From a virus (taxonomy: Duplodnaviria > Caudoviricetes), in IMG/VR virus record IMGVR_UViG_3300042519_001736, positions 1 to 54,586 of that record: 54,586 bases of DNA; one strand, 5' to 3'. Under the pieces are notes generated by a model that saw only the letters and a list, made by a program, of their open reading frames with translations, ran no database searches and was not told where the DNA came from. A program made the position numbers and the translations under genes. This document shows, piece after piece, positions 6,748 through 41,176 of the stretch. The first letter of the stretch is position 1, and each line of letters opens with the position of its first letter.

Positions 6748-8754
6748 TTAATTGTTTCCTCGTGGTCGGTCAGCAACTCGATAGAGTTGCTTGCCCTGCC
6801 ACAGAACCTCTGTACCAGGAGGGTACAGTCGAATCTCTTCTTGGCTCATCACAACTGGAGGAAGGCCAAGGTTGTCGTATTGCTGGGCGAGAGCCGAGGC
6901 GCGCTGTCGTGCCTTGCCCTTATCAGCAGGTGTCAGGCCAGAGCTCGCAGACCCTTGCTTCTCGTTTTCTGAGATCATGCTACGAAGCGTTGAACCCAGT
7001 GCGATAAGCTTCGTGCCGTATGCGTCGGGGTCCAGCGTAGCGCTTGGAATAATCCCAATCACACCCTTCAACTGCTCCTGTTCCTTTTGGCTGCCTGCCG
7101 TGCTCTTAAGCAAGGACTCCACAACGCGCTCTGCCTGTTGCTTGGCTTGTTGACGTGCCAAGGAAATCTCAGCAAAGGGGTCACCAAGGCCGGGGATACC
7201 GGAGATGACGTCCTTTGCGGCGCTCACTGGCCCAGAAATCTTGTACCTGTCATTCCAAAGAGAAATCTGAGGGGCAGCCTCTGCTTCAGCAGTGCCTGCA
7301 GGAGAAGTGCCTGGCCCGCCCATTGGCAGCGGTGGCACGCTCGGGCCTGAAGAAGCGCTTGGCTGCGGGCCGCCCATCGGCAATGGTGCAACGCCTTGTC
7401 CCGAAGCGGCAGTTCCCCTTGTCAGGATTTGAGGAAGCTCTCTTCTTACTTCTCGATATCCACTGATCATGTTGGTCACGGGGTCCATGATGGGGACCAT
7501 CTTGGGCTCAAGCCACTTATCCTTCGCCAATGAGAAGATTTGTTCCTCCTGCGGTGTGGCAGTGCCGGCTTCAACCTTTGGCCCCAAGGTCACAAACGAA
7601 TTCATGATGCGTCCGTCCAAGCTGTTACCAAACGCATTGGTTGCTGCGCCACCAATCTTCTTGGCTTCAATCTTCGCTTGAGCGCGCAGCACTTCGTTGA
7701 GCAAACTGCCCTTGCGCTTTTCCAGCTCAGCATTTTGAGCTGCGACTTTGTCAACGTCTTTCTCACCTTGCTGCAATGCCAGAGTTTTGATCTGACGATC
7801 AATCTGGGTGATCTGTTCCAGTTGCCGACCCATGGCAGCGGGCAGTGTTCGGGTGGCCCCGGCCAGGCGAGAGATAAAGCTGCCGCGCAATGGTTTACCC
7901 GTCTCGTCGGTGTTTGCAGCAAAGCCAAAGGCCCGTTGTCCGAGGTCAAACAGCATCTGTGCCTGCGTTGTATTCTTGTCCACGGCCAGCATCTTGTTGA
8001 GCAGTGGTAGGCGGGACATCGTCGCTTCTTCAATGCTCGGGGCCCGAACCGGCTGCTGGTTAAGCGTGCCCATGGCCTGCCGCTGAGCAGCGGCCACCAT
8101 TTCGGGAGGAAACATCATAGCGCCGGAGTCAGAAGGGCTTTGTACAGCAGGGGTCACGCCTTCTTCATCCGACCCGTCGCTAAAATTTTGGACGTACCCG
8201 CCCTTGGCCATTGCGATCGGCGCAGAAGGGGGTGCACCCCCACCAAGGGCCGCCGTCAGTTCAGCTATGCCTCCTTGCTGTGGGGGCGGGGGCATGTCTG
8301 CGCCAGGAGGCAGTGGGGGCATGCCCGGAGGGGGCATGCCCATCTCAGCCGGCACCGGAGGCATGCCGGGGGGAGGCATGCCGGGAGCGCCGTCCATCAT
8401 TGGTGGCTGTGGCCCTTGGGCCATGGGCGCTGATTGGGGCAGCGCGCCGATACCGCCACCACCCTGCTTTGCCAGCACAGGCTGTAGCATGGCCAAGACG
8501 GTTTCTGGCGTTTCAGTGGCGGCCTGATAGCCCACCAAGTCAGCCAACTCATCCCGGCGCGCGTCAATAGAGCGCATGTCGCCGCGCAAGTTATTCATCA
8601 AGATTTCCGGCGTATCAGGACGACGCTCCAGCATTTTCTCGGAATCATCGTCCTCGTCATCGCCCTCGTCCTCTTCCGACATTGAGTCCATGAGACCCTG
8701 CATGATGCCGACGTTTTCGACATCGTCATCCATTGCCTTCATTTTTTTGTTCAT
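6748..8754 (-). CDS. Internal virion / ejection protein
   Basis: 668 aa with acidic and Pro/Met-rich tracts, MAKGG motif, coiled coil. Position among the ejection genes. Confidence 0.6.
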   Translation of the reverse strand: MNKKMKAMDDDVENVGIMQGLMDSMSEEDEGDDEDDDSEKMLERRPDTPEILMNNLRGDMRSIDARRDELADLVGYQAATETPETVLAMLQPVLAKQGGGGIGALPQSAPMAQGPQPPMMDGAPGMPPPGMPPVPAEMGMPPPGMPPLPPGADMPPPPQQGGIAELTAALGGGAPPSAPIAMAKGGYVQNFSDGSDEEGVTPAVQSPSDSGAMMFPPEMVAAAQRQAMGTLNQQPVRAPSIEEATMSRLPLLNKMLAVDKNTTQAQMLFDLGQRAFGFAANTDETGKPLRGSFISRLAGATRTLPAAMGRQLEQITQIDRQIKTLALQQGEKDVDKVAAQNAELEKRKGSLLNEVLRAQAKIEAKKIGGAATNAFGNSLDGRIMNSFVTLGPKVEAGTATPQEEQIFSLAKDKWLEPKMVPIMDPVTNMISGYREVRRELPQILTRGTAASGQGVAPLPMGGPQPSASSGPSVPPLPMGGPGTSPAGTAEAEAAPQISLWNDRYKISGPVSAAKDVISGIPGLGDPFAEISLARQQAKQQAERVVESLLKSTAGSQKEQEQLKGVIGIIPSATLDPDAYGTKLIALGSTLRSMISENEKQGSASSGLTPADKGKARQRASALAQQYDNLGLPPVVMSQEEIRLYPPGTEVLWQGKQLYRVADRPRGNN

Positions 8755-8763
8755 AGTGACCTC

Positions 8764-10431
8764 TTAAAAAAGACCCGCCTTTTTGGCACCGGCTACCGTG
8801 GAAAGGGCACCTAGGCCGATGCCTACGGCTTGCTGGAATGGACTGGCGCTGGGCGTGCTTGCAATAGTGGTCTGCATTTGCGAAGACGGTGCGCCCTTGT
8901 AGATGTCTGACAAGAACGCGGCCTGTTGATAGGGCGCGTAGACCTGCTGGAGCTGTGTGGCCCGCTGAGCATCAAGCCCTTGTTGGTTAAGCGCCTGCTG
9001 AGCCTGCCCGGTGTTGTACAAGAAGTTGATGTCGCCTTGTTGAAGGGTTTGAGCCGTCTGACCCAATGCGGCCTGCTGCACACCAAGCTGGCCCAATTGG
9101 CCCGCCATTGCGCCCAGCCCTTGCGCCTGCTGTTGGCCAATGCCAAACTGCTGCCCGGCTAGGCTGCCAATGCCCTGTCCTATTTGCTGGAACTGTTGCC
9201 CCTGTTGGCCATACAACGTGCCAGCCGTTTGGGCGGCTTGGTTGCGAGCCTGGGACTGTTGCATCAACAGGTTGGCAATGTTTTGGTTGATGGCCGCTTC
9301 TTGGCCCGCCAACGCGCCGCCCTGAGAGGCCAAGTTCCCATACTGCTGACTGGCCTGCAGAAACTGCCCGGCAGCGCCTTGACCCAGTTGAGCCTGCTGA
9401 ACACCTAGATTGCCCAGCTGACCCCCAGCCTGCACCCCCAGTTGAGCCTGCTGAGCGCCCAACTGGCCAATACCTTGGCCCGCCTGCATTTGACGCCCTT
9501 GTTGCTGCTCAAACGCATTCATGGCCTGCGCCTGCGCCTGGGTATAGCCCTGTGACAAGAGGTTGGCGATTGTGGACGACTTCTGGTCCATCAAGTTGCG
9601 CTGCATTTCGGCGCGTTGAACGCCTTCGCGCTCGCCGCCAAACGCACCAGATCGGACTGCCTGCGCTGCCAGACCCTGCCCAGCAATTGCGCCTTGGCGA
9701 TCCATTTGACGCATGGTCTCGTCAATGACCTGCTGACGGTACGGGTCCATGAAGGCCTGTGCAAAACGCGGGTCGTAGCCCTGCGCTGCACCGCTAAGTG
9801 CACCAATCCCCATGCCCAGTGTCTGTTGGCCCTGCTGCAGGCCCATGCCGATGGTGGACGTGGCGGGATTGAGGTTGGCCTGGCTGGCACCTGCAGACAT
9901 GTTCTGGGCCGTGGACAACGCGCCAAGGCCCGATTGCAGGTCCTGACGAGCGCCGCCGAACTGCCCCGTAGTGTCAGACATTGCAGTGCGCCGTGCAGCA
10001 CTGTCAAGGTAGTCCAACCCTTGGTTGATTTGACCAATGCCTGCAGTGGTGTTGGCAGCAGCTTGCCCCGCCTGCCGCATGGCCGCCTGTGCATCAAAAA
10101 ACTGGTTACGAGTGTCCGCCCCGCGCAGCACGTCAGCAGCTTCGCCCGTGGTCGTATATGCAGCCTCCACCGCCCTATTGGCATTGGTCATGTACGGGTT
10201 AAACGCTCCAATACCCTGTTGCGTAGCCGCCGCTAAAGCGGCTTGCTGAGCAGGGGAAAAGCCTGCCACTTGGTAAGCGGGAAGCTGAGAGCCGAGAGTG
10301 GGGGCAACAATGCCCGCTTTGTTTGGAAGACCAAAAGAAAGTCTCTCTGCTTCCTCCATTAAGCGCAGTTTTGCCTCCTCAATCCGAGGAGACTCCTGCA
10401 CTATCTGCGCGGTGGTGGTTACGTCTGCCAT
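8764..10431 (-). CDS. DNA transfer / pilot ejection protein (Gln/Gly-rich)
   Basis: 555 aa. FMDPYRQQVID and GAFGGER motifs, Q-rich helices, hydrophobic C-terminal GIGLGAL. Confidence 0.7.
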   Translation of the reverse strand: MADVTTTAQIVQESPRIEEAKLRLMEEAERLSFGLPNKAGIVAPTLGSQLPAYQVAGFSPAQQAALAAATQQGIGAFNPYMTNANRAVEAAYTTTGEAADVLRGADTRNQFFDAQAAMRQAGQAAANTTAGIGQINQGLDYLDSAARRTAMSDTTGQFGGARQDLQSGLGALSTAQNMSAGASQANLNPATSTIGMGLQQGQQTLGMGIGALSGAAQGYDPRFAQAFMDPYRQQVIDETMRQMDRQGAIAGQGLAAQAVRSGAFGGEREGVQRAEMQRNLMDQKSSTIANLLSQGYTQAQAQAMNAFEQQQGRQMQAGQGIGQLGAQQAQLGVQAGGQLGNLGVQQAQLGQGAAGQFLQASQQYGNLASQGGALAGQEAAINQNIANLLMQQSQARNQAAQTAGTLYGQQGQQFQQIGQGIGSLAGQQFGIGQQQAQGLGAMAGQLGQLGVQQAALGQTAQTLQQGDINFLYNTGQAQQALNQQGLDAQRATQLQQVYAPYQQAAFLSDIYKGAPSSQMQTTIASTPSASPFQQAVGIGLGALSTVAGAKKAGLF

Positions 10432-12426
10432 TTATTTCCCCTTCACAGGACCGCCTTCAAGCATCTTCATGAGCTTGTACATGCGCGCCGCACCCTTGCG
10501 ACGACTTCCGCTGCCCGCGTTGCGGACAGCCTTGGCAGTAAACACGAATTCGCCATCCGACAGCATAGCTGGGATGTCGTCTGAAGTCCCACTTCCAGGC
10601 CCGTTGATAGGACCTGTTTTACGAGGAAACTGTGTGGGCTCGGGTATGCCGCCCTTAGCCATGCGCTGAGGCATGTCTTGCCCATAAACCAACGGCACGC
10701 CGTACATCCCTGCAAGGTTATACGGCTGAGGAATGGCTCTTGGGGAATTTGTAATGCCGGTAGGCGTGACAACTGGAGCGCCAGGCTGCATGGGAAGGGC
10801 TGCGGAGTAGTCAGTGCTCACGATTGGATTGTATGGAGCAAGCTTGGCGGTTTCCAAGCCATACCCGCCCTCTCGGACAAACTTATCGCGCTCCTTGGCC
10901 AACCGCGCATTTTCAAGGTATCGTGCTTTTTCGGCGGCCGATACTTCGTCGATGTCTTCCTTGTTTTTAAAACCGCCTGACAATGCGGCAGCTCCAAGCC
11001 CAAGTCCTACCTTAGTCAGCATGCTCATGCCCGGAGCCGCAGCAGCCGCAGCCGCAGGGGCCGCAGCAGCCGCCGCAGTTGCGGCGGCTGGAGCCGCAGC
11101 TCCAAGCGACGCTGCCGCCGTGCCAGGGGCCGATGAGGAACCGAACAGGCTCTCAAAGAAGCCTGGAGAAGATGCCGCAGGGGCCGCAGCAGGAGCCGCC
11201 ACAGGGGCCGCACCTGCAGGAACAGTCGAAGGGTCATACGACATTGTCTGATTAGGCTGCAGTGAAAGCAGGCTTCGGGCTGTGCCGTCATATTGAGGCC
11301 CGTAATCGGAGCCGCCCACTTCTATGCCGGGCTGAGAGGAGACATTCGCTTGCGGGTTGTTTCCAAACGCGTTCATCGCAGCTGCCGAAGCTCCTGAGGT
11401 GAGGCCCATTTTTAAGGCATCTGCCGTGCTGAGTCCGCCTATTTTGCCAATGCCAAACCCCGTAAGGCCGGTGGCCAGGCCCGTGTTAAGTGCGCTGCCT
11501 GCCGCTCCTGGTAGGAAAGAGCCCAGTGCCTGCGTGGGGCTAAAGCCGCCAATGGTGCCGCCACCACCAAAATAACCCATGGCACCTGACATTAAGGCCT
11601 CTTTAAGGCTGCCGCCTCCCGCCAAAGTTACGCCGCCGGATACCAGCGCGGCGGTCCCTGCCTTACCCAACGTCATGCCGATCGACGTTGGTCCGAGGAG
11701 CATGGCCAAGCCCACAGTAGCCAAGACTTTTCCAATGGGGTTTGAAAGGACCTTCTTGACTGCGCCAGTAACGCTTTTCCAAAGCTTTTTGAGGAAGAAT
11801 TCAGGCAGGCCTGTGACGGGATTAATTGTTCCAGAGCCGCCACGGGCCTTAAGCAGCTGCGCCTCTCCAGGCGTGATGTGCGCCAGCATGGTGTCGCCAT
11901 TGCGTCCCTGAGACGCCATGTAAGAAGCCACATCTGCCAAACCGCCTTGGGCCATGGTCAGAGGTTGTCCCCCATTGATGCCCTGCATGGCATCTGCGCC
12001 CTGTATGGGCGGCATGTCCATCATGGGGGCCTGCGCTCCCTCAAACTGCATCAACTGCAGCTCATGCAAGGCAGAGATCATCGCGCCCAGGAATCCGGGG
12101 TCATACTCTTCCGGGAGGTCTTCCGCGTCAACAGCATCGCTGTCTATGAGGTTTTGACGCAGCTGGGCGTACTCGCCCGGGCGCTGGGACATGTAGACCA
12201 GCGTTTCAAGCATTGAGGATATTTCAGCCGCCGAAAGCTCCACTTCCGCCATACTCTGGCGAATCTCGGCCTTAAGCGCGGCGTATTCTTCGGGGCTGCG
12301 CTGTTGCAGCACCGTTTGCGCAGCATCGTATGAGTCTGCGCTTGAGACAATCGGTTGCTCGTTTACAGGCGCTTCGCCTTGCATGGGCATGCCTTGGGGC
12401 AGCGCCATGATTCCTTCATTCGCCAT
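10432..12426 (-). CDS. Internal virion / ejection protein
   Basis: Start MANEGIM at 12426. GRNGDTMLAHITPGEA, GGSGTINPVTGLPEF and GPGSGTSDDIPAMLSDGEFV motifs typical of injected proteins. Confidence 0.7.
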   Translation of the reverse strand: MANEGIMALPQGMPMQGEAPVNEQPIVSSADSYDAAQTVLQQRSPEEYAALKAEIRQSMAEVELSAAEISSMLETLVYMSQRPGEYAQLRQNLIDSDAVDAEDLPEEYDPGFLGAMISALHELQLMQFEGAQAPMMDMPPIQGADAMQGINGGQPLTMAQGGLADVASYMASQGRNGDTMLAHITPGEAQLLKARGGSGTINPVTGLPEFFLKKLWKSVTGAVKKVLSNPIGKVLATVGLAMLLGPTSIGMTLGKAGTAALVSGGVTLAGGGSLKEALMSGAMGYFGGGGTIGGFSPTQALGSFLPGAAGSALNTGLATGLTGFGIGKIGGLSTADALKMGLTSGASAAAMNAFGNNPQANVSSQPGIEVGGSDYGPQYDGTARSLLSLQPNQTMSYDPSTVPAGAAPVAAPAAAPAASSPGFFESLFGSSSAPGTAAASLGAAAPAAATAAAAAAPAAAAAAAPGMSMLTKVGLGLGAAALSGGFKNKEDIDEVSAAEKARYLENARLAKERDKFVREGGYGLETAKLAPYNPIVSTDYSAALPMQPGAPVVTPTGITNSPRAIPQPYNLAGMYGVPLVYGQDMPQRMAKGGIPEPTQFPRKTGPINGPGSGTSDDIPAMLSDGEFVFTAKAVRNAGSGSRRKGAARMYKLMKMLEGGPVKGK

Positions 12427-12430
12427 GGTG

Positions 12431-12498
12431 GTCCTTTCCAGTTTTTGCCAGTAGCCTCGCTTAGGGCTGCGCGCCGGGAAAGGACGCGTTAATGGCAA
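12431..12498 (-). ncRNA. Candidate structured 5' leader that sequesters the RBS of the first ejection gene
   Basis: 9-bp stem 12431-12439/12477-12485 covers GAAAGGA. Crossing 6-bp stem 12445-12450/12493-12498. Inner hairpin 12453-12468. Confidence 0.5.
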
Positions 12499-12499
12499 G

Positions 12500-12529
12500 A
12501 TTATCCCTTAAATCCCCACGCCCTGTCCA
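12500..12529 (-). promoter_or_regulatory. Sigma70-like promoter TGGACA-18-GATAAT
   Basis: Directly upstream of the structured leader. The -35 lies in a 13-bp direct repeat (12517-12529 and 12535-12547). Confidence 0.5.
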
Positions 12530-12868: not shown

Positions 12869-13579
12869 TCAGTTCGCCGATACAAAGTTGATGGTAAGAA
12901 TCACTGACGGAATGGCAGGGCGCGTGGGACTTGTGCCAGCAGCATAGTTCTGAATAAAGACGTTCAAATTATCCGACCACCAGGCAACTTGCAAGTAGTC
13001 GTTGGTGGGATCATCTACAGTGAAAATACCAGTAATCGCTGGAACTATGTGGGACCAAATACTGGCGCTTTTACGAGCAGGCACATCAAAGCGTGTGTTG
13101 CTCAACGGGTAGTTGACACCAGTGTCCTTGGCCCATACCTCAAATTCAGCGACTGTATTGCTGCGGTTTGTTACCTGCAAGGTAAATGTCACCAGGTACT
13201 GGCCAGCACAAGGAACTTTGATCCGTGAGCCGCTTTCCACGGTGATACCGTTGGAGAACGCAGGAGCAAACGTAAGCAGGTTCTCACCCGTGATGCTGGC
13301 GTTTGTTTGGTCCTGGTCCGAGATCATCATTGCCTGGGGCAAGATGATGCCGTTGCTGTTCTGAAACCCACGGATACCACCAGCAAACCCGCCTCCCGCT
13401 CCGCTGCCCATGCCCATCCACGTAGCAGCCGCCGCAGTGTCCTGACTGGTAACCGGCGTGTACGTGTTGTTAAGCTGCAGAATAATCTGCTCAAGCGAGC
13501 GCACCAGCTGGTTGAACTGCGCCGGGTCGTAGTCCGTCTGATTCGCGTTGGGCAGGCGGACGTTGGTGATCTTGCTCAT
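12869..13579 (-). CDS. Tail needle/fibre-associated protein
   Basis: 236 aa. N-terminal LPxA...YD...FNQLVRSLE helix followed by a beta-sandwich-like C-terminus. Confidence 0.55.
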   Translation of the reverse strand: MSKITNVRLPNANQTDYDPAQFNQLVRSLEQIILQLNNTYTPVTSQDTAAAATWMGMGSGAGGGFAGGIRGFQNSNGIILPQAMMISDQDQTNASITGENLLTFAPAFSNGITVESGSRIKVPCAGQYLVTFTLQVTNRSNTVAEFEVWAKDTGVNYPLSNTRFDVPARKSASIWSHIVPAITGIFTVDDPTNDYLQVAWWSDNLNVFIQNYAAGTSPTRPAIPSVILTINFVSAN

Positions 13580-15429
13580 CGAATGCCGTCCGGTTGAATA
13601 TCAACGCGCATCGTGCCAAAGCGCCAGTTGCCATTCAAGTCGCTGCTTTCAATCCGCAACTGAATCTGGCGGCCGCGTGCGCGAGTGTCCACTTTATCCG
13701 TGGTGGGCGTGATGGTGTAGGGGTCCAAAGAGCTTGGCGTGGCGCTGGTCTGTGGGTACAAGCGCAAGAGCAGCCGCACCGCCAGATTGCCGACTTGATT
13801 TTTGAAGTCTGGGATAAAGCGCTTCATGAACAGCACCTGGTCCCCGTCGCCAATGTCAAAGTAACCTGAGTAGATGTGGGCCTCAATCGGCAGGCCATCA
13901 TCATTTACCCCGGTCTCCTGGTTGTACAAGATGGACCTTCCGGCGGTTAGGCCAACAATGGGGGTAAGGCTCGACTGCACTGACTCCGGATCGTACTTTG
14001 TGGCCAAAGGTAACGGGAATGACCCAGTGTCCCGCCACGCAGTGCGAGCCAGGGTGCCGATGGACCAGACATTTTCCAAGTAGTTGTACGTTACCGACCG
14101 ATTGACATACGAGCTGTCGGCGGTGGGGTAGAACCACGTGACCTCGTTGAACTGGGTATTGATGGCCACGTTGACAGAAAATCCTTGGGCGGTGTTGATG
14201 TTGTCGTACACGTAGTCCTGCACGGAGGACGGAATTTTTTTCACCGTACCGTCAAAAACAAAGAACGCGTCCTTGCTCATCCAATACGCCACACCGTTGA
14301 CGTCAGCACAAGCATGCGGACCAATAATTCCGCAGTTGGCCCCCAGCTGCTGGAAACCGAAGGTGTACGGAGGCCCAATAAATTGCTGGCCATGCAGCGC
14401 GGTATCCGTCCAGATCAAAATCTGTCCTCGCGACCGCAGTGCGGAGATGATCTCGTTACCGTCCGTGAGCCGTTGTCCGCCGGCCGTGTTGGTGGCGGTG
14501 GCAACAAAGTCACCAATGTTCTCTTGGCTTGAAAAGCGCACAAACATCGGGTCTTGACTGGTCGGGTCACCAAGCACGGATTCCGTGCCAAAGCACACCA
14601 GGTGTCGGTCGGGCGTGGAGATCAACGCAAACGTGCTTCTTGTTGGCGCTCCAGCAAGAACAGTGGCCCGTGTTGAAAGGCCCGAGGCTGGGGACCACTG
14701 GAATACCTGCCCGTTCACCAGCTGCATGATCAGGTCTTGGCCGTAGTTGTCAAACTGCCAGACACGGGAGCTTAGGGCAAGGCCGAGAACAGTGGGAGGG
14801 CGAGGTGTGTTCCAGGAAAAAGAGTTCCATGCACCCGTGTTCCAGCCATAGTCAAAGAAGCTGACGTCACTTCCCACGCTGATTTGATACACCCCGTTGG
14901 CCGTGCCAGCGGTAGAGGCGGTGGACGTGGCAGCGGTGGGAGACAGGATTGTGTACTGGCTTCCGCTCAAGACCTGTTGGATTTCAAACTCGTTTGTTAG
15001 GGTGGCATTAAGGATGCCCCCAGGGTTCCCGGTAACCGTGTTGAAAGTGACAAAGTCCCCGACCACTGCACCATGACTGGCATCGTTAACCGTGACTATG
15101 GCGGAGCCGTTAGTAGTGTTAAAGGTAACTGCGTCAGTTGCCCGGATGGGGGTGATGTCAGCCCAATCACCGCCATAAAAAACATAGACTTTTCGGTTGG
15201 TGCCAAGAACCATGTATGGTGTTCCGTCCAACGCATTCCAGGTAAAAACCTCGGAAACGGCCCCTACAAAGTAGATTTGCGGGGTGTTAAACGATTCCCA
15301 GCCGCCTATCTTTTCTGGCAGGCCATAGCGGAATCGGACAAAGTCGCAGTCTACCCATCCGCCTTCCGCACCGTATTCGGTGTTCTGTTTGTCAATGCCA
15401 GGCTTGAGGAACAGTCGCAGGAGGGCCAT
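13576..15429 (-). CDS. Tail nozzle / P22 gp10-like DNA stabilisation protein
   Basis: 617 aa, beta-propeller-like. KPGIDKQ...VRFRYGLPEKIGGW N-terminus and DIQPDGxR C-terminus. Confidence 0.8.
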   Translation of the reverse strand: MALLRLFLKPGIDKQNTEYGAEGGWVDCDFVRFRYGLPEKIGGWESFNTPQIYFVGAVSEVFTWNALDGTPYMVLGTNRKVYVFYGGDWADITPIRATDAVTFNTTNGSAIVTVNDASHGAVVGDFVTFNTVTGNPGGILNATLTNEFEIQQVLSGSQYTILSPTAATSTASTAGTANGVYQISVGSDVSFFDYGWNTGAWNSFSWNTPRPPTVLGLALSSRVWQFDNYGQDLIMQLVNGQVFQWSPASGLSTRATVLAGAPTRSTFALISTPDRHLVCFGTESVLGDPTSQDPMFVRFSSQENIGDFVATATNTAGGQRLTDGNEIISALRSRGQILIWTDTALHGQQFIGPPYTFGFQQLGANCGIIGPHACADVNGVAYWMSKDAFFVFDGTVKKIPSSVQDYVYDNINTAQGFSVNVAINTQFNEVTWFYPTADSSYVNRSVTYNYLENVWSIGTLARTAWRDTGSFPLPLATKYDPESVQSSLTPIVGLTAGRSILYNQETGVNDDGLPIEAHIYSGYFDIGDGDQVLFMKRFIPDFKNQVGNLAVRLLLRLYPQTSATPSSLDPYTITPTTDKVDTRARGRQIQLRIESSDLNGNWRFGTMRVDIQPDGIR

Positions 15430-32937: not shown

Positions 32938-32947
32938 GGTCTTCCTT

Positions 32948-33210: not shown

Positions 33211-33360
33211 TCAGTATATCTTAACTGGACGGTTGCCGTCACGCTTTTTGACAATCATGGACGGACCCTGCACGCCCGGGGGCGTCTTGGGCATCCCGTA
33301 CTTTACGCCCTTTGGTTCTTTGGTCTTCACGCGCTTGAGTGGAATTTCTTTAACCGCCAT
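33211..33360 (-). CDS. Small basic protein (49 aa)
   Basis: MAVKEIPLKR...KKRDGNRPVKIY with GGAGG RBS. Confidence 0.6.
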   Translation of the reverse strand: MAVKEIPLKRVKTKEPKGVKYGMPKTPPGVQGPSMIVKKRDGNRPVKIY

Positions 33361-35686
33361 ACTGGCCTCCTGGTTGGTTGAGCTTGGCTTCCTGCAGTTG
33401 CAACTTCTGACGGTTGAGCTGCAAAGTCTCTTGCTGCTTTTGCTGATCCATGGCCAAGCGCTGTTGGTCAATGTTGATGCGCGCTTGGTCGGCTTGGCCG
33501 CGCTGGGCAATCTCTTTTTCCTTGAGCACGACCAACGGGTCGGGTCCTTCGCCACCTGCGAAAGCCTCTTGCATGTCCCGCACCTCCTTGATTCCAGCTG
33601 CAATGCGCAGGGCAATCATGCCCTCCTTCTGGATGGCAGACACCATGCGATCGGGATCGGTGCCATAGGCCTTGAACAGGTCGGCTTCGACGTCCTCTTC
33701 CGCGCGCAGGCGCACGTGATCCAGGATGTGCTTTTGCAGTTCAATCGCGGCCAAGGGGTTGGCCTGCAAAAGAGGTGACAGGCCCATCATCAGGTGCGCT
33801 GCCATGTGGGCATCATGCTGCTGGCCGGCAAAGGCTTTGAGCTTCATGCCATTGAGCACGTCGCTGTTCTCAGACGCAGGGTCGCGAGGCGTATTGGTGT
33901 TCTGCGGCAACAGCACACCATCAATGTCACGGACGTTCAGCGCTGCATACATGCGGTAGAAGGCCTCGTACATGTTGTGCATGTTCGGGGCGCTCTGTGC
34001 AAGCTGCAGCTGCATCTGTGCAAGCTGGATACGCTGAGCGGAGCTGAAGATGTTGGGGTCAGCCACGGGCTGCACCGACACCATGGTGTCAAAGTCCTTC
34101 TTCTTGATCTTGCGACTGGCCCCAGGCACGTCGTAGGGGTACTCGTCAGGCATGTACTGGCCAAAGCCCTCAAACAGGAGTTTGAACTCCAGCGTCTGCG
34201 CATAGTGCAGGCGCTTGTGGATGCTGGACATGACCATAGAGCCGCGCTCCAGTAGCGCCAAGGTCGTTCCAACCTGCGCGTACTGGTTGCCGTCGCCAAC
34301 TTGCATGTCGGCAGTGCTGGACAGGCGCTTGCCCGAGTCAATCAAGAACCCCATGAGCGTGAACAGCACTTGGCTTGGCTCTTTGTACGGCAATGGCATG
34401 AGCGAAGCAGAAAGTTCCGCGCCACCAGCATCAATGTCACGCCATTCACCCGGTTGGATCGGGTTAGAGTCGTCCGCGATCCGCGCGCCCTTGGCTTTGA
34501 AGCCTGCGGGCAGGTTAGACAGAGTTCCGGCGTCGGTCAACTGGCGCAAAGCGCTCGTAGCGGCCTTGCTGAGACCGCCAATGAGGTGCACAAAGCCCAG
34601 ACCATAGGCTCCTGGGCCTTCGACAAGCACGTAATGCACAAAATAGTTGCGGCGACGGCATTTTTTGTCGTCTTCTTTCCAGTTTCGACGAATTCCGACC
34701 ACTTTAAGCGTGTCCTCGGCCAGTGTGACGACGTATGGGCGCTTGATCCCGGTCACCTCGCCGTCTTCGTCCTTGTCTTCAAAGCCTGGGATGTCCAAAT
34801 CAACCAGTTGCTCGAGCAAAAACACCTCTCCAATGTCGTCGGTAGGCTGGATGCCGGTGATTTTGTCAACCGCCTCTTGAATTTGACTCGCATCAGCAGG
34901 TGTAGAGTAAGTGTCCAAGAAAATATCGAGGTACTCACCGGCCAAGGCGCGCTTTTTGTACTCGTTGGAGTCCATCGCAATGCGGTGCGTGAGCCGTGGG
35001 CATTGGGACACGACACTTGAGCCGTTGTAGGGGATGTAAACGTCGTCTGCCAGGCACAGTTTGGACACCATGCGCTCCAGTTGGTAGTCGTAGTAGACCT
35101 TTTTGAAGGTCGAACCACCGTAACCAGTGTAGAAAAGCTGCTGGTCAAACTCCGGCGTGTACTCCTCCATCACCGTGGTGAGCTGATAGTTCATAAAGTC
35201 CTGCACGCGGCCGGCCTGCTGGAACTTTTCCACCGTCTCCTTGCCCATGATTTGGCTGCGGACAGGTCCGCCGGCAGGCATGAGCTCTTTGAAGGCCTGT
35301 GCCTGGAACTGAATGATGGCCTCGGTCAGCATTGGATGGGTCGCGCCTGACGCGCCACGGAAAGGCTTGGTGCGCTCTTCCATGCGAAAGCCCAGCAGAT
35401 CAAGGCCCTTGGCGTACATCTGCTCCCAGTCGGACCGCGAACCCTTGTCCGCTTGGAACAAAGAGGACACTTCGATGCCGATCGTGGCCAACTCGTCTGA
35501 ATCAATGACCTCGGCCAGGTTGGCGTAGAAGTCCACCTCCTCGGCATCCTTCTCGCCCATCTCAATAGTTGCGCCGCCGTCCTCTTCGATGATGATCTCG
35601 ATGTCCGACTGGGGCGCTGGAATGCCCCCGCCGCCGATGACTACCTCGAGCATGGGCATGCGGTTCAGTGCTTTTTCGATTGCCAT
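33350..35686 (-). CDS. Portal protein
   Basis: 778 aa. FYANLAE, PFRGASGATHPML, GSTFKKVYYD, DAGTLSNLPAGFK, C-terminal coiled coil. Confidence 0.9.
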   Translation of the reverse strand: MAIEKALNRMPMLEVVIGGGGIPAPQSDIEIIIEEDGGATIEMGEKDAEEVDFYANLAEVIDSDELATIGIEVSSLFQADKGSRSDWEQMYAKGLDLLGFRMEERTKPFRGASGATHPMLTEAIIQFQAQAFKELMPAGGPVRSQIMGKETVEKFQQAGRVQDFMNYQLTTVMEEYTPEFDQQLFYTGYGGSTFKKVYYDYQLERMVSKLCLADDVYIPYNGSSVVSQCPRLTHRIAMDSNEYKKRALAGEYLDIFLDTYSTPADASQIQEAVDKITGIQPTDDIGEVFLLEQLVDLDIPGFEDKDEDGEVTGIKRPYVVTLAEDTLKVVGIRRNWKEDDKKCRRRNYFVHYVLVEGPGAYGLGFVHLIGGLSKAATSALRQLTDAGTLSNLPAGFKAKGARIADDSNPIQPGEWRDIDAGGAELSASLMPLPYKEPSQVLFTLMGFLIDSGKRLSSTADMQVGDGNQYAQVGTTLALLERGSMVMSSIHKRLHYAQTLEFKLLFEGFGQYMPDEYPYDVPGASRKIKKKDFDTMVSVQPVADPNIFSSAQRIQLAQMQLQLAQSAPNMHNMYEAFYRMYAALNVRDIDGVLLPQNTNTPRDPASENSDVLNGMKLKAFAGQQHDAHMAAHLMMGLSPLLQANPLAAIELQKHILDHVRLRAEEDVEADLFKAYGTDPDRMVSAIQKEGMIALRIAAGIKEVRDMQEAFAGGEGPDPLVVLKEKEIAQRGQADQARINIDQQRLAMDQQKQQETLQLNRQKLQLQEAKLNQPGGQYGG

Positions 35687-35695
35687 GTGTGTTCC

Positions 35696-38600
35696 TTATC
35701 GAGTGCGTGGGGACGCTCCGAGCTCTGTTTTGTAATTCTGCAGCAAGGGGGTCAGGTAGCTGTCCGACTCTTCAATTGCTGCTGGCTTGAGGTGAGTTTG
35801 CAAGAATCTTAAGACGGCGGCATCATATTTCTCAGGTGCGGTGTTGCCCGAAGCACGACCGTTGCCCTTGATTTGTGTCACGACAGGCGTGGTCTCGTCC
35901 AGCATCTTCACCTCGATTGTGTTGACAGGTCTATTACGGTTGTCACGTAGAGTATATACCTGCCATTTGCCGGTGCCAAAGCCGTCCATTTTATCTTTAG
36001 AGTAACCTACGCCACCCAGCTCATAGCCGCCCACGGAGTGGCCGACATACGCGCCTTCCGGCACTGTTGCTTCGCGCTTTTCAATGCGTTTCCAGGCAAA
36101 GCCGTCCAGGCCCGAGCCCTCGCCAAACTGCAGCAGGGGCTTGCTCACGCCATCAGAAAACACGTTTTCCGCCACGGGCTTGCCAGCTTTAATCCTGCTG
36201 ACCATGGTCTCAAGCTTGAACTTGTTTTCGCCCAGCTTCAGGCCGCCGCGTACCGCGTCTTCAAAACGGATGTTGGCAAGCTCTCGCGCGGGCAGGCTGG
36301 CGAGATACTCATTGATGTTTTCTGGCTTAAACAACACGCCAAGTGTCTTGCCCATGTAGCCAATGTCGTAAACAGGCTCGCCCTTTTCAATGGCGGTAAG
36401 CACGTTTTGGGGCAGCAGATTTGGGCCCACTTCGGACTGGTCCAAGCCTTGCAGGCCTGAGCGGCCCTTGCCAAACTGGTCATTGGCCCACGCAAGCTGT
36501 TGCTCGGGTGTCATCTTCTTGTAGGCAGATGCCTCTTCAAACGCCTGATACAAATCCTTTGCCGAACGCGCGCTGTTCTCGCTCACAATGCGGTCCGGGT
36601 CCTTAACTCCACGGGTCGTAATCCCTATTTCGGTGTTAATCAGCTCTGGTCGCATGCCCTGGGCCATCATCTTGTCCGCTTCTATCTCTGCCGCTGCACG
36701 GCCCATGGCCCGGCCTTCCGAGCTGATGGAGCTGTAGGCGGTCTCAGCAGCGGCAGGGTTGGTGGTGATCAGGTTGCCCCGGAGGCCCGTAGCCTCGTCA
36801 TAGCGCCGCGAGACGTCTTCGTATGATTCCGGATATTCTGGAAAGAAGCGCGATTCAGCGGGCCCTGGGCCAACAAAATCCGCAGCTGGGCGTGCCCCTT
36901 CTTTGGTCCTTGTCTTGCCTACGGCCAAGGAATCTATAAGGCTCCTCGGAAAGCCTGTTCTCAGGTCTGACAACGCCGTTCCCTTGAGCTTCTTTGTTTT
37001 GATGCCTTCCAAAATCGGGTCGTCTGGCGTGCCGTACTGCCGTTCAAAGTAGTTGCGCGCCTTTTTGTTCCAAAAATCTTCGATGAGGCCGCGTTTCTCA
37101 TCGTTTCTTTCTGTGACGTATTTGGCCTCAGTTATGCCGCCTTGCAACAATTGATCTACTTCGCTGACGTTTTTGTTCAAGCCCACAGTGCCCGTGAGCA
37201 TGGTGCTGCCGGTGGGGCGCACCGCATACGACGCGCCAGGGACAGAAATCTGGCGGTTGTACTCCAAGAAATCCTTGCCCACGTCAGCAGCCTTGTCGCC
37301 CACGGCCTTGGCTGCCTTCATGCCTGCGCGCACAGGCGCTGCAGGGTTCACGGCGCTTGAGCCGATCTCAGCGATGTTGAACAAGGCCCGCGCGGCTGTG
37401 CCTTCCTTGGGCGGCTCTTGGCGGATGCCGGCCTTGGTGGCACGGCGCTTCAAATCCTCCGAGCCCAGCATGGGCGCTTCCACGTTGTAGCCAAACGGAC
37501 GCATGGCCATGGTGGCCAAGTCCACCGGTGCACCCAAGAGGTTGTACGGTGTTTCAGAGATGCCCTGCAATGCAGCAGCTTCCAGGTCCCCTGCCTTGGT
37601 CGAGCTCTTGCGACCTTTGCCAGACTTGGGCGTGACAAAAGCAGGCCTGCTTGCGGCGTCAAGCTCTGCTTGCGAGACCTCTCCCTCTTCAGGGCTGCCC
37701 TCGGCGCGGTACTCGGGACGCTGGGCCGGGCCCTTTTCGGCCTTGGCCTTGCGCGCGTCCAGCTGCTCACGGCTCATGATGTAGGGTTTGTCCTTGGTTT
37801 GCTTGGTCTGAGCCTGCAGCGCCATGGCCTGCACCAGCTTTTCCAACTCAGCCTGGCTCGTGGACCGCGCTGCAAGTTCCGCACCGATGCGGTTGTTGTG
37901 AACATCGTAGGGCAGGTCGTCACGCGGCTTGCCAATGCCCAGTGCCGAAAAGAAGGTTTGCGGGTTGCTGGTGTACTCGTGGGCCTTGCCCAGCAACTCT
38001 GCCGCCTTGGGACCATACTTGCGCGCCACACTGCCAGCGGCCAACATATGCCGGGCCGCGTCCCGCTGATCGTCTTGGCCAAGCTGGTCAGGGAACATGC
38101 GGGCCGACGCCTTGGTGGCATAGTCACTCACGCCGAAGATGCTGGGCTCAGCCACTTCGGCCTCAGGCTTTTTTACTTCACCACCTTTAGCAAAAGTCTT
38201 CTTACCCAGAGTGTTCCTGGTCAGGGTTGGTGCCTCCAATGTGGGCGCTCCAAGGGTATTGGCCCGTAGGCCAAGGGCCTTGTTCTTGGCAATTTTGATC
38301 TTGCGCTGATACTGCTCGACAAACGCCTCCATCTGCGCCCGGGCTGAGTCCGTGTTTTTAGACTCACCAGGCGAGGATGTCGTGTCAAGCTTCAGCTGTT
38401 TGATTTCCGCCAAAGGAGCCAGCTTGAGGTTCATCTCCTTGGAAGACTCCGAACCGCCCGCGCCCCGCGAAGGGCGCTTTATGTTCTGGCGCACAGGGGA
38501 CAGCTTCTTGGTCACGCTAGTCACATCGGTCAAATACTTTTGAGCCGTGCCCAACGGGTCGATGTCAATTGAATCAGCCTTTTCCTTCTCTTGCTCTTGC

Positions 38601-41176
38601 TGCAGGTAGTCGCTGATATAAGTGCCGTTGCTCACGGCCTCTCCACCTTCTTTAAAGAACGCCGGCATTGTTGGGGCCGCAATGACATTGCCAAAACGGT
38701 CCGTTGTAGTGCCCAAGGTGCCTGACAGAGGCGCTCCTCCCCCTGAAGCTTGAGCGGACAGTTGGCCCTGTCTCACCGCGTCTGCTGCGGGGACCACTGC
38801 GGAAGCAACTGCGTTACCCATGCGATCCCGCGTGGTGCCGAATGTGTCTGACAGCTTCTTGTAGCTACCCAAAGTGTGGGGGTCCAGACTGTTATTGCCC
38901 ATTGAGCGCGCGGGTAAAGCGGGTGCAGACGGTGTGCCAGACTGGGCCGGCACCATTGGGCGCTCATAACTGTTCGCAGGAGCAGCCAGAGGGCCGACTG
39001 CGGTGCGCTTGAGCACCTCGTCTTCAAACGCGTTCAGGCCAGGGGCCCTCAAGCCGGCACCAGGGAGAGTGGGAACGCCGTAGTCAGGTGTGCCAGGGCC
39101 CCCAGGTGTGCCACCTGTTCCGGGCCTTGGCCGCATGGTTATCGGGTCAAATTCCCTTGGACCTGTAGCAGAACTCACTGCAATTCCGGTAGGGGGGATT
39201 GCCGGAGGTGTCACAGGTGGGGGTGCCACAGGTGGGGGTGCCACAGGTGGGGGTGCCACTGGCGGAGGTGCCACAGGTGGAGGTGCCACAGGTGGGGCTA
39301 CCACTGGCGGAGCTACCACTGGCGGAGCTACCACTGGCGGAGCTACCACTGGCGGAGCTACGGGAGGATTGGCAGCGGCGGCGGCACGTTTTCGGGCTTC
39401 TTCAGCCGCTGTTGTGTATTCTGGAACGCCACCAAACTCGGGGAATGCCGCAGCCAATTGCTCCGGGCTGTACTTGAGAAGCGCTTTATCCAGCTCTTCC
39501 TGCGTTTGCGGTCCCGATTTAATCAACGCACGAAGAGCCGCCGCCTGTTCCGCCGCAGTGGGAGGTGCCACTGGAGGCGCTTCGGGTGGGTCAATATTGG
39601 CGTTGACCTGTCCGGGTGCGGTAGCCATAGGCGGACCATTGACCTGTCCAGGTGCGGTAGCCATAGGCGGACCATTGACCTGTCCAGGCGCGGTTCCCAT
39701 GGAAGGACCATTGACTTGGCCGGGGGCAGTCCCCGCTTGATCAAATCCGTTTAAATCATCTCGAGCAGATGCCCCAATGCCGGGTGAGGAAAAACCCGGG
39801 TCGCCTAGTTGAGGGAAACCAGGAAGCGCTTCCAAGTCGTCTCTAGCTGAGCCTGAACCGCCCGGTGAAGAAAAACCCGGGTTTCCCGATGATGTGGGAC
39901 CAGGGGACCCCGCAGGGTCAGGCCTGTTCATCCAGTCGTCAACAAAGTTAGAGGGGGAACCAGCACCAGCACCAGCACCAGGGCTGCCGGGTATCGCTTC
40001 CAAGTCGTTTCTGGCCGAGCCTGAACCGCCGCCAAATCCCGCAATGGTGTCTTGAATGTGTTTGTTAAGGTCTTCAATGTATTTGTTGACGTTAGGCGGG
40101 GTTGTGTACAAGTGTGTAGCGGGCATTCCGCCACCCATGCCTACGTCGTTGGTCAAGGTGGGAATATTGCCGCCAGAGCCGTAGCCGCCAGAGCCACTAC
40201 CGGCGAGGCTACCACCACCACCACCACCGGCGGGGCTACCACCACCATCACCGGTGGGAGTTCCGCCGCCAGGGGCTTCACTGCCAGCACCACCACCGGC
40301 GGGAGTTCCGCCGGCCGGAACCCCACCAAAACTGCCAGAGTCCGCGCTGCCCGCACCGGGGCTACTAGGAATGCCGGAACCCACATCGCCAGCCCCTGGG
40401 CCGCTGGCGCTGCCAGAGCCTGCGCCGCCAAAACTGCCAGAGTCCGCGCTTCCCGGGCCCGCGCTACTGGCGCTGTTAGAGTTCACGTTGGAAAGGTTGT
40501 TCGTGACCCTTGACACGTTAACTGTTGGACGGGCAGGTGCTGGCAAATTTGCCAGCATCTGATTAAACCTGGACAAGGGTGCCGGCTGGTTTGATGCAGG
40601 GCGGAACACAGGTGCCGCAGGCGTTGCGCGTGCCGCCGGACTGTACAAAGGAGGCGGAGCTTTGTACGTATTTCTGTTCGTCGCAGGCGTAAATTGAGGC
40701 CCCGCACGGGTTGGCAGCGGGACCGTCGACCGACTCGCCGTCGGACCGTATAAAGGGCGCGGAGCTTTGTACGTATTTTTGTTCGTCGCAGGACTAAACT
40801 TAATGGCAGGCGGAAGGGGGTCCCGAAACCCAATAGCAGGAGCAGATGCCCTCGGACCACCAAAAGGCGAAGACCCAGTCGTTGTCCCACGCATTGTAGG
40901 AGCAGATGCCCTCGGACCACCAAAAGGTGAAGACCCAGTCGTTGTCCCACGCATTGTAGGAGTAGCTCGCGCTGCCTTAGCGGCAGCTTCCGCTCTTGCC
41001 CTCGCAGCCTTGGCGTCAGCCTCGGCCCTTACTCGCGCTGCCGTGGCCGCCGACTGCGCGGCTCGCTCGGCCTGAATACGGGCCACTCCAGCATTGTTTT
41101 TTGCCATGTTGTCCCGGGTTGCTTGAGAAATCCCCGGGGCGTTCATTTCGGCTGCTGTCCAGATTTTTTGGGCCAT
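35696..41176 (-). CDS. 1826-aa multidomain (polyvalent-like) protein
   Basis: Disordered repeat-rich N-terminal half, a DAARH...HE...DVHNNRIG helical domain, and a C-terminal PcfJ-like domain (EG..VGHSVGGY, YTLRD, TIEV, QIKG). Confidence 0.7.
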   Translation of the reverse strand: MAQKIWTAAEMNAPGISQATRDNMAKNNAGVARIQAERAAQSAATAARVRAEADAKAARARAEAAAKAARATPTMRGTTTGSSPFGGPRASAPTMRGTTTGSSPFGGPRASAPAIGFRDPLPPAIKFSPATNKNTYKAPRPLYGPTASRSTVPLPTRAGPQFTPATNRNTYKAPPPLYSPAARATPAAPVFRPASNQPAPLSRFNQMLANLPAPARPTVNVSRVTNNLSNVNSNSASSAGPGSADSGSFGGAGSGSASGPGAGDVGSGIPSSPGAGSADSGSFGGVPAGGTPAGGGAGSEAPGGGTPTGDGGGSPAGGGGGGSLAGSGSGGYGSGGNIPTLTNDVGMGGGMPATHLYTTPPNVNKYIEDLNKHIQDTIAGFGGGSGSARNDLEAIPGSPGAGAGAGSPSNFVDDWMNRPDPAGSPGPTSSGNPGFSSPGGSGSARDDLEALPGFPQLGDPGFSSPGIGASARDDLNGFDQAGTAPGQVNGPSMGTAPGQVNGPPMATAPGQVNGPPMATAPGQVNANIDPPEAPPVAPPTAAEQAAALRALIKSGPQTQEELDKALLKYSPEQLAAAFPEFGGVPEYTTAAEEARKRAAAAANPPVAPPVVAPPVVAPPVVAPPVVAPPVAPPPVAPPPVAPPPVAPPPVAPPPVTPPAIPPTGIAVSSATGPREFDPITMRPRPGTGGTPGGPGTPDYGVPTLPGAGLRAPGLNAFEDEVLKRTAVGPLAAPANSYERPMVPAQSGTPSAPALPARSMGNNSLDPHTLGSYKKLSDTFGTTRDRMGNAVASAVVPAADAVRQGQLSAQASGGGAPLSGTLGTTTDRFGNVIAAPTMPAFFKEGGEAVSNGTYISDYLQQEQEKEKADSIDIDPLGTAQKYLTDVTSVTKKLSPVRQNIKRPSRGAGGSESSKEMNLKLAPLAEIKQLKLDTTSSPGESKNTDSARAQMEAFVEQYQRKIKIAKNKALGLRANTLGAPTLEAPTLTRNTLGKKTFAKGGEVKKPEAEVAEPSIFGVSDYATKASARMFPDQLGQDDQRDAARHMLAAGSVARKYGPKAAELLGKAHEYTSNPQTFFSALGIGKPRDDLPYDVHNNRIGAELAARSTSQAELEKLVQAMALQAQTKQTKDKPYIMSREQLDARKAKAEKGPAQRPEYRAEGSPEEGEVSQAELDAASRPAFVTPKSGKGRKSSTKAGDLEAAALQGISETPYNLLGAPVDLATMAMRPFGYNVEAPMLGSEDLKRRATKAGIRQEPPKEGTAARALFNIAEIGSSAVNPAAPVRAGMKAAKAVGDKAADVGKDFLEYNRQISVPGASYAVRPTGSTMLTGTVGLNKNVSEVDQLLQGGITEAKYVTERNDEKRGLIEDFWNKKARNYFERQYGTPDDPILEGIKTKKLKGTALSDLRTGFPRSLIDSLAVGKTRTKEGARPAADFVGPGPAESRFFPEYPESYEDVSRRYDEATGLRGNLITTNPAAAETAYSSISSEGRAMGRAAAEIEADKMMAQGMRPELINTEIGITTRGVKDPDRIVSENSARSAKDLYQAFEEASAYKKMTPEQQLAWANDQFGKGRSGLQGLDQSEVGPNLLPQNVLTAIEKGEPVYDIGYMGKTLGVLFKPENINEYLASLPARELANIRFEDAVRGGLKLGENKFKLETMVSRIKAGKPVAENVFSDGVSKPLLQFGEGSGLDGFAWKRIEKREATVPEGAYVGHSVGGYELGGVGYSKDKMDGFGTGKWQVYTLRDNRNRPVNTIEVKMLDETTPVVTQIKGNGRASGNTAPEKYDAAVLRFLQTHLKPAAIEESDSYLTPLLQNYKTELGASPRTR
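39205..39365. repeat. 15-bp tandem repeats encoding VAPPP / VAPPV
   Basis: GGTGCCACAGGTGGG and GCTACCACTGGCGGA arrays. Confidence 0.9.
39602..39735. repeat. 36-bp tandem repeat, about 4 copies (TAPGQVNGPPM)
   Basis: Visible direct repeats of CCATTGACCTGTCCAGG. Confidence 0.88.
40837..40962. repeat. 60-bp tandem duplication (APTMRGTTTGSSPFGGPRAS)
   Basis: Two near-identical copies. Confidence 0.9.

Follow-up and report, generated by a model that had tools for sequence, protein, structure and literature searches.

The window analysed here, an entire IMG/VR virus contig of 54,586 bases (completeness estimate 87%), encodes a recurring pentapeptide, Phi-[A/K/R]-x-G-G, in which Phi is F, Y, M or L. 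As judged from its distribution in this virus and its relatives, the pentapeptide is a short linear motif under selection, located where modules of carried or ejected proteins meet. By the same evidence, it is the element that flanks, on one or both sides, a tape-measure module of about 50 residues consisting of a hairpin and two helices. The carriers presumably have in common a location in the DNA conduit, or passage through it, and ejection from the particle.

The decisive evidence that the motif is real was its conservation across relatives. Seventy-three loci were fetched with a tape-measure-like protein of 688 amino acids (aa) and 80 with an adaptor protein, and 25–50 relatives were compared for each protein. 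Position 1 was restricted to F, Y, M or L among the relatives, both glycines were invariant, and the length of the flanking linker varied. At the site of a 668-aa ejection-type protein, 29 of 30 sequences had M at position 1 and one had F, GG was present in all 30, and the Pro/Met/Gly linker ahead of the motif changed in length and sequence. In the 688-aa protein, the copy at residue 182 was conserved in 26 of 26 sequences, and the copy at residue 613 began with a bulky residue in 25 of 26. Relatives with an insertion of about 60 residues carried a second copy immediately ahead of the C-terminal module.

The glycine codons of the motif (GGC, GGT, GGG and GGA) were used freely, with glycine itself fixed. 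This indicated selection at the protein level. A sequence-only reading of the window, made before this analysis, had taken the motif for a genuine element, and the conservation and the synonymous codons bore this out. Orthologous motif sites were also retained in a distant relative, DSL-LC04. A conserved Phi-x-x-GG column was found in 7 of 34 orthologue groups. In a 145-aa protein, a 100-aa protein and the portal the column was uninformative, because the whole protein was 71–89% identical.

The strict pattern [MFY][AK]xGG was counted in the 69 open reading frames (ORFs; 17,279 aa) of the window and compared with within-protein shuffles. Eleven occurrences were found against 2.6 ± 1.6 expected, and none of 2000 shuffles reached 11, a significance that is overstated because the pattern was defined post hoc. 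All 11 copies fell within the 37 ORFs of the virion module (12,249 aa), and none in the other 32 (5,030 aa). A pattern-free look at the residues before GG gave weakly significant enrichments of M at position -3 (9 versus 4.3 expected, p = 0.03) and of K at position -2 (14 versus 6.4 expected, p = 0.005). In a part of DSL-LC04 with 50 coding sequences, the strict pattern occurred five times against 1.6 expected, a number reached by 43 of 2000 shuffles. Taken alone, the single-genome evidence made a modest case for the motif.

Three of the 11 strict copies are probably unrelated to the junction motif. These were YAAGG in ORF 25144–25581 and two copies of YAGGG in the Gly-rich paralogues at 20982–21941 and 22015–23004. 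The two paralogues are adjacent on the minus strand, and each has a Gly_rich_2 domain (PF21722) and 49 GG dipeptides; their YAGGG copies are probably chance matches. The motif was missing from other linker-rich virion proteins of the window, such as those of 1070 and 555 aa.

Every peptide named in the sequence-only reading was present at its position on the minus strand, and copies beyond its list were MLEGG at 10450–10464, the two YAGGG and YAAGG. The counts above agreed with its observation that the motif is confined to virion or ejected proteins. It had also placed the motif in disordered stretches ahead of conserved modules. AlphaFold2 (AF2) modelling of the whole 688-aa protein pointed the same way: the mean predicted local distance difference test (pLDDT) score was 43.8, usable for order and disorder only, and the motif copies lay in low-confidence, unstructured segments. 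The description of the sites as the end of a Pro/Met-rich linker was correct in part. It applied to the sites of the 668-aa and 688-aa proteins, where the Pro content of the 40 upstream residues was 10–33% (33% at the 668-aa site), and not to the three sites of an 1826-aa protein (5–7%). None of the copies in the large proteins of the window (at aa 182, 613, 679, 841, 995 and 1156) was N-terminal.

The 1826-aa protein is PcfJ-like, and its relatives were gathered through the C-terminal domain. Eighty loci were returned, of which the 48 with at least about 1.8 kb upstream of the match were analysed, giving 37 distinct proteins. At least one strict copy lay upstream of the C-terminal domain in 34 of the 37. 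The upstream parts (29,327 aa) contained 98 strict motifs against 4.8 ± 2.2 in shuffles (maximum 16 in 500), and the globular C-terminal domain (21,798 aa) only four. The count of 98 measures retention and not independent events, because the 37 proteins are related.

The usual positions in the family were FAFGG at aa 12–42, MA[EKD]GG at about 200, FAKGG at about 700 and F[AK][ED]GG at about 850, each followed by a recognisable segment. The N-terminal FAFGG was present in most members, and N-terminal copies occurred in relatives only. The 825-aa 'PcfJ-like protein' of DSL-LC04 had FAMGG-16, MADGG-39 and FAEGG-55, that is, three copies in its first 60 residues, and RAEGS ahead of the domain. A module with the pattern GD..LA..P.E...GGSGTINP.TGLPEF, which follows MAQGG in the 688-aa protein, was also found downstream of MA[DE]GG in unrelated large proteins, including the PcfJ-like family.

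Rearrangements among the relatives respected the motif. The cassette between FAKGG-995 and YRAEGS-1156, which contains the DUF6973 domain, was replaced by a different one in relative L159 and deleted in L162, with the motif kept. At FKEGG-841, long insertions in L162 and L091 were bounded by copies of the motif (FFKEGG among them): they started after one copy, included YFNEGG and HFAAGG, and closed with FMKEGG. In L093, L086 and L091 the protein terminated at the YRAEGS position; the L093 product ended in ...EYAKGGAAKKSK followed by the stop codon and then by a portal-sized ORF. L093 has EYAKGG at this position, and the sequence-only reading was right to list YRAEGS as a variant copy. The surrounding RAEGSPEEGE was conserved throughout the family. 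In L186 the gene was divided into two ORFs eight residues after FAEGG. The 1826-aa protein thus belongs to a family of large multi-cassette proteins with swap, deletion, insertion, truncation and gene fission of cassettes, a feature of polyvalent virion proteins.

The N-terminal 700 residues of the 1826-aa protein consist of low-complexity repeats (TMRGTTTGSSPFGGPRASAP twice, GS.ARDDLE..PG three times, APGQVNGPPM three times and a long VAPP/PVAPP run). Most relatives lack such a stretch and begin instead with FAFGG and a Gln-rich segment. In relative L229, the N-terminus carries, by eye, a lytic-transglycosylase-like (SLT-like) segment (ELESS...GLFQL) ahead of MASGG, which fits ejection of the large PcfJ-like proteins into the cell envelope. 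Judged from this L229 cassette and from its own gene place between the terminase and the portal, the 1826-aa protein is putatively packaged and delivered to the host. Its C-terminal domain gave no match in a protein atlas search or a PDB sequence search.

The link to tape-measure proteins came from the C-terminal part of the 688-aa protein. Residues 604–664 matched PHROG tape-measure families (expect value, E, 4.4e-8 to 3.8e-5). A tblastn search with the same stretch found tape-measure genes of Arthrobacter, Gordonia, Vibrio and other phages; their core read GPG.GTSD.IPAMLS.GE.V, with ..AGGG before it and FATGG or FNTGG after it. A profile of the last 82 residues was compared with 1.84 billion representative proteins. 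At E <= 1e-3 it matched 19,116 protein clusters (defined at 50% identity), of which 3,199 reached E <= 1e-10. The hairpin module GPGTGTSD.IPAMLSDGEFVFTAKAV at 10435–10662 (minus strand) of the window is one copy of this widespread module, which mostly stands at the C-terminus of tape-measure and ejection proteins, lambda gpH included.

The flanks were counted in the best 150 of these proteins, which contained 189 module cores. The core lay within 45 residues of the C-terminus in 128 of the 189. An xxxGG pentapeptide was found within 45 aa upstream of 165 cores; its first residue was F in 40, Y in 39, A in 23, L in 22 and M in 19, and its second was A in 133. Phi-x-x-GG within 70 residues downstream was found at 101 of the 189 cores. 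The upstream copy started in the first 15 residues of the protein in 2 of the 165, P0111 among them. The host proteins ranged from 85 to 5,284 aa. At the small end were stand-alone forms (...YAQGG-x8-FPRK...), one of which starts MFAQGG. At the large end were giant tape-measure-like proteins with at least four flanked module copies and a lysozyme-like or HExxH segment between them.

AF2 modelling of the module with 37 sequences gave a beta hairpin and two helices (core pLDDT 74–84), with MLEGG closing the last predicted helix. A Foldseek search of this model against the PDB gave no match at E <= 0.001, and no Pfam (E up to 0.01) or NCBIfam (E up to 0.1) model matched the window copy. In a PDB sequence search, the tape-measure chains of Douge and JBD30 were found to carry the module (E 4.3e-10 and 3.1e-7). 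Of these two solved entries the one checked, Douge, has only residues 1,658–1,699 modelled and does not include the module (PMC13033339), so that no structure of the module was found.

The module of the 688-aa protein has the lambda-type hairpin core (..[LV][ST].GE[FH]V..A..), a helix with [ML]Y.LM, and the Phi-A-x-G-G flanks that occur up- and/or downstream of such cores, here MAKGG upstream and MLEGG downstream. Its host protein is not the ruler of tail length in a long tail. We consider it an ejection protein with a tape-measure module, because the window has SU10-type adaptors, no tail tube or sheath gene was recognised among the ORFs scanned with PHROGs and Pfam, and the podovirus-like gene order is that of DSL-LC04. 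The sequence-only reading had described the motif carriers as unrelated proteins; as to the motif this was not so, for it flanks a common and widespread tape-measure-type module.

Two small Met/Lys/Gly-rich proteins of 81 and 72 aa carry the motif in another form. Their ORFs are real genes, conserved in about 47–51 sequences in which the number of M.KGG or M.KGYAAGG units changed in frame. The 81-aa protein was conserved in 26 of 26 sampled relatives, which had a variable number of tandem M.KGYAAGG units. In some relatives of the 72-aa protein, a Pro/Met linker was inserted between two MKKGG copies. Neither of the two, nor the 668-aa protein, matched a family in Pfam, NCBIfam or PHROGs.

Beside these two genes, at 28252–28506 (minus strand), lies a gene for a basic protein of 84 aa. 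It matched only the extreme C-terminal 70–90 residues of much larger PHROG families (for example, positions 438–525 of 525 and 859–928 of 928). These alignments make it look like a further case of a C-terminal module of large phage proteins that exists on its own.

We tentatively interpreted the motif as a 'cut or hinge here' signal, an interpretation that we favor with somewhat less than even confidence. An exposed and flexible Gly-Gly joint with a hydrophobic anchor would lie at each module boundary, and a long precursor would be processed into separate modules, or at least mechanically uncoupled, at the motif. This would occur during particle maturation or after ejection. The parallel would be the processing of lambda gpH and T5 pb2, by a protease still unknown. 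The interpretation is based on the cassettes that are flanked on both sides, on the modules that are lost or split exactly at the motif, and on the enzymatic segments of giant tape-measure proteins that are bracketed by copies. The cut itself, and the agent that would make it, we infer.

A broader proposal, to which we give only a small chance, is that Phi-A-x-G-G would be a general 'cut here' code of proteins travelling through the conduit. In this view it would be the maturation cleavage signal long sought for tape-measure proteins, and the conversion of lambda gpH to gpH* at FATGG or YATGG would be the type case. Its reader would be the host or the protein itself, and not a prohead protease, and podoviruses would have reused the code to divide polyvalent ejection proteins and small basic core peptides into modules. 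Among the 41 of 69 ORFs scanned with Pfam and the 30 scanned with PHROGs, a protease domain was not recognised, though divergent proteases could escape such a search; cysteine protease domains, of clan CE or otherwise, were likewise not found among the ORFs scanned. This agrees with a host or autocatalytic activity.

Several points weighed against the cut-or-hinge interpretation, the lack of a recognised protease domain being one of them. The phage group is known from metagenomes alone, and none of its proteins has been observed to be cleaved. The three copies that the PcfJ-like protein of DSL-LC04 has within its first 60 residues make poor sense as cut sites, and so do the tandem 9-residue motif units in the small proteins, the copies 3–10 residues from a C-terminus and those starting in the first 15 residues. 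Self-cleavage by the T-S-D of the module is unlikely because T-S-D is absent in lambda. T5 pb2 has no profile similarity to the module. The estimated cleavage of gpH (about 14 kDa, at about residue 690–720) falls upstream of FATGG-733, and the T5 site is disputed between R1127 and V1148 (PMC11937520).

The motif may instead be a docking or tethering element that is not cleaved. It would be a sticky peptide binding a common partner in the conduit (the portal, the tail lumen or hub, an ejected protein or the hairpin module), so that cargo is held and multiple copies add avidity. We regard this as somewhat less likely than the cut-or-hinge interpretation, but as a serious rival to it. Arrays of copies with no functional segments between them, as at the N-terminus of the DSL-LC04 protein, would be expected of such an element, as would the FAFGG at aa 12–42 of most family members, the tandem units of variable number in the small proteins and the copies at extreme N- or C-termini. 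In lambda, gpH residues 818–849, which include MRDGG-842, contact gpI (PMC12617516). On the other hand, no partner was identified. It would have to be generic, since phages that carry the motif and module infect Actinobacteria as well as Proteobacteria and have tails of both types, and docking is a less natural explanation of doubly flanked cassettes. A complex prediction of the module with the 72-aa motif protein gave a score of 0.00, that is, 'no answer', and bears on neither interpretation.

It is unlikely that the motif is a structural joint only, with no shared recognition. It would then be a turn, a helix cap or a hinge needed for module folding, or would be left over from module shuffling by recombination between short stretches of conserved sequence. 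MLEGG does terminate the last helix predicted for the module, the motif is always associated with module boundaries, and its free position 3 and small position 2 are turn-like. Against this, a strict pentapeptide is retained in disordered linkers far from folded parts, which is unusual for a passive linker. The synonymous variation of the glycine codons speaks against conservation at the DNA level, and the motif is absent from the linker-rich 1070-aa and 555-aa virion proteins.

The T4 capsid-targeting signal is an N-terminal peptide cut at L/I-x-E by the phage prohead protease (gp21), acting in heads. The sequence-only reading had likened the motif to it, as a head-targeting code by which cargo would be loaded into the prohead, the signal then being removed by a head protease. 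This now seems very improbable. The restriction of the motif to virion-module proteins (11 copies versus 0) and the N-terminal copies in many PcfJ-like proteins encoded between the terminase and the portal would suit it. However, the same motif and module are typical of the tape-measure proteins of siphophages (lambda gpH, Douge, JBD30, and Arthrobacter and Vibrio phages), and a head-specific signal is unlikely because tape-measure proteins lie in the tail lumen. Further, the copies of the window are internal or C-terminal, the T4 pattern is different, and no prohead protease was recognised in the scans described above, as that reading had itself remarked.

That the motif arises by chance, or from the composition of low-complexity sequence rich in Gly, Met and Lys, is scarcely credible: despite the post hoc pattern, the weak position-wise enrichment before GG in this genome alone and the three strict copies in Gly-rich or otherwise unrelated proteins, the column was conserved among relatives through changes of linker length, the PcfJ-like family had 98 copies for about five expected, and an upstream copy stood at 165 of 189 modules of diverse proteins.

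Other candidates were also rejected. The Met is not a relic or internal start codon, for relatives have F, Y or L (codons TTC, TAT and CTG). The motif is not an RGG-type nucleic-acid-binding box, position 3 being often T, S, Q, E or D, and it is not a signal-peptidase A-x-G cleavage site, as no hydrophobic segment lies ahead of it. GTSD.IPA.LS.GEFV presumably resembles the LexA/S24 serine motif. A LexA/S24-like self-cleaving module was dropped, the module being too short and T-S-D being absent in lambda.

The positions of the motif copies and of the main genes are collected in the table below. Nearly every gene of the window is on the minus strand. The closest named record was the metagenome-assembled phage DSL-LC04, with which the gene order is shared and which is podovirus-like in the same way. 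Its labels for the counterparts of the last four proteins are 'tail tape measure protein', two hypothetical proteins and 'DNA transfer protein'. A DNA search of a phage collection with the window gave one marginal match.

Table. Motif copies, motif-bearing proteins and main genes of the window
Feature	Position	Strand	Description
MAKGG	8197-8211	(-)	aa 182-186 of 668-aa ejection-type protein (ORF 6748-8754); end of variable-length Pro/Met/Gly linker
MAQGG and following conserved module LADVASY..GRNGDTMLAHITPGEAQLLKARGGSGTINPVTGLPEF	11794-11955	(-)	MAQGG at 11941-11955, aa 182-186 of 688-aa tape-measure-like protein (ORF 10432-12498)
C-terminal module of 688-aa protein	10435-10662	(-)	MAKGG (10648-10662, aa 613-617), FPRK..GPGSGTSDDIPAMLSDGEFVFTAKAV beta hairpin, two helices, terminal MLEGG
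MLEGG	10450-10464	(-)	aa 679-683 of 688-aa protein; conserved copy
FKEGG	38642-38656	(-)	aa 841-845 of 1826-aa PcfJ-like multi-module protein (ORF 35696-41176); junction with inserted modules in relatives
FAKGG	38180-38194	(-)	aa 995-999 of 1826-aa protein; upstream flank of DUF6973 cassette (aa 1016-1118)
YRAEGS	37694-37711	(-)	aa 1156-1161 of 1826-aa protein; variant copy ahead of PcfJ-like C-terminal domain
81-aa Met/Lys/Gly-rich basic protein	27542-27787	(-)	MKKGG 27659-27673, YKKGG 27554-27568, degenerate copies
72-aa Met/Lys/Gly-rich basic protein	27784-28002	(-)	VKKGG 27967-27981, MKKGG 27913-27927
Large terminase	41214-42851		family scans
1826-aa protein, DUF6973 domain	35696-41176	(-)	family scan
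Portal	33350-35686		family scan
GroES-like protein	32464-32970	(-)	family scan
HK97-type capsid protein	29507-30415		family scans
Two SU10-type adaptor proteins	26876-27541, 25868-26527		family scan
Endolysin and holin	15606-16603		family scans
Virion protein	13576-15429		family scan
Four large ejection-type proteins	10432-12498, 8764-10431, 6748-8754, 3526-6738		family scans and DSL-LC04 gene order

The GroES/Cpn10-like gene lies inside the head module, directly after the portal, and the equivalent place in DSL-LC04 is occupied by an annotated co-chaperonin GroES. A 386-aa protein at 23974–25134 (minus strand) consists almost wholly of near-identical units of about 18 residues (VTGVQGIASVGQVVVDVS...) and matched no family in Pfam or PHROGs. 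Other family matches, early genes included, were DUF932 (44224–45273), a P22 NinX-like protein (47234–47629) and a Pam3 gp33-like protein (DUF7307; 469–1110), all on the minus strand.

In a limited search of the open-access literature on tape-measure cleavage motifs and on these pentapeptides, no description of the junction motif was found. The conserved C-terminal element of tape-measure proteins is already known; its use as a general junction grammar over several ejected proteins of a podovirus lineage appears to be new. The processing of tape-measure and ejection proteins is a long-standing question. For gpH, neither the cleavage site nor its catalyst is given as known (PMC12617516), and the T5 site is disputed (PMC11937520). 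For lambda itself, the analysis points to a concrete candidate element, represented by FATGG-733, YATGG-778 and MRDGG-842. A further outcome is the definition of a widespread module (19,116 clusters); its window copy has no Pfam or NCBIfam match, and it merits a separate family definition. Should the motif prove to be a cut or docking signal, it would aid the annotation of ejected 'cargo' proteins in uncultured phages, the division of giant polyvalent proteins into functional units, and the design of fusions delivered into host cells by phage particles.

Among known systems, the T4 capsid-targeting sequence is like the motif in being a short peptide common to otherwise different internal virion proteins and linked to maturation, the latter being proposed for the motif. 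It differs in that the motif of the window is internal or C-terminal, has another sequence, comes with no protease seen, and occurs also in proteins of the tail lumen. Processing at GG is found in the adenovirus protease, with the consensus (M/I/L)XGG-X, in pS273R of African swine fever virus (GG-X) and at the C-terminal GG of ubiquitin-like proteins. The likeness to these systems lies in a hydrophobic residue a few positions before GG, in sites within both small basic core proteins and large polyproteins, and in short tails after a C-terminal GG. The spacing is different: the hydrophobic residue precedes the second Gly by four residues in the adenovirus consensus and by five in the motif.

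Polyvalent proteins of phages and conjugative elements have reportedly been described by Iyer and co-workers. The 1826-aa protein is like them in its very large size, in its shuffled cassettes (DUF6973, the SLT-like segment in L229 and the PcfJ-like C-terminal domain) and in being encoded beside the portal. No peptidase cassette was recognisable in it, and we know of no junction pentapeptide described for polyvalent proteins.

The conversions of gpH to gpH* and gpHC in lambda and of pb2 to pb2* and pb2C in T5 both involve cleavage near the C-terminus, in or beside a Gly-rich stretch, with no known protease (PMC12617516, PMC10038345). The tape-measure protein of Arthrobacter phage ArV2 migrates at 100 kDa and not at 128 kDa (PMC4205034). 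T5 pb2 is cut after R1127 according to Linares et al. (PMC10038345), a position that reads FVPR/AEGG and resembles the RAEGG and RAEGS copies seen in this analysis; V1148 has been favored instead (PMC11937520). Profile comparisons of pb2 with the module detected no similarity, so the T5 parallel is a visual likeness only. Both published cut positions (after R1127 and after V1148) fall in one 25-residue stretch of T5 pb2 (L164; residues 1124–1150), FVPRAEGGMMYPGVSYQMGEHGTEVVTP, which by eye looks like a motif with a hairpin, with no profile support.

Lambda gpH has the order FATGG-733, ..PAGIVHRGEFVFTKEA...LYRLMRG, YATGG-778 and ...MRDGG-842. In hhalign comparisons, the module profile aligned with gpH 701–853 with a probability of 74% (E 2.8e-5), placing YATGG opposite MLEGG of the window; with the full-length alignment, the probability was 20.5% (E 0.0011). 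Lambda gpH sheds a fragment of about 14 kDa from a Gly-rich region near its C-terminus (PMC12617516), and a cut at FATGG was computed to give a fragment of 12.2–12.5 kDa. MRDGG-842, which falls within the resolved residues 818–849, is the only structurally resolved copy of the motif. The window differs from lambda in its host protein, which is not a tail ruler but belongs to the internal or ejection proteins of a short-tailed phage with an SU10-type adaptor. In addition, the motif of the window occurs away from the hairpin module, having spread to other ejected proteins and to small ones that are almost motif only. The G.GTGTSD.IPA part of the window module is lacking in lambda. The two are alike in the hairpin core (GEFVFT in gpH), the helix (LYRLM in gpH, MYKLM in the window) and the GG flanks, all of which lie in gpH within about residues 730–853, the gpHC fragment. 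In both, the module closes a long protein whose ejection precedes that of the DNA.

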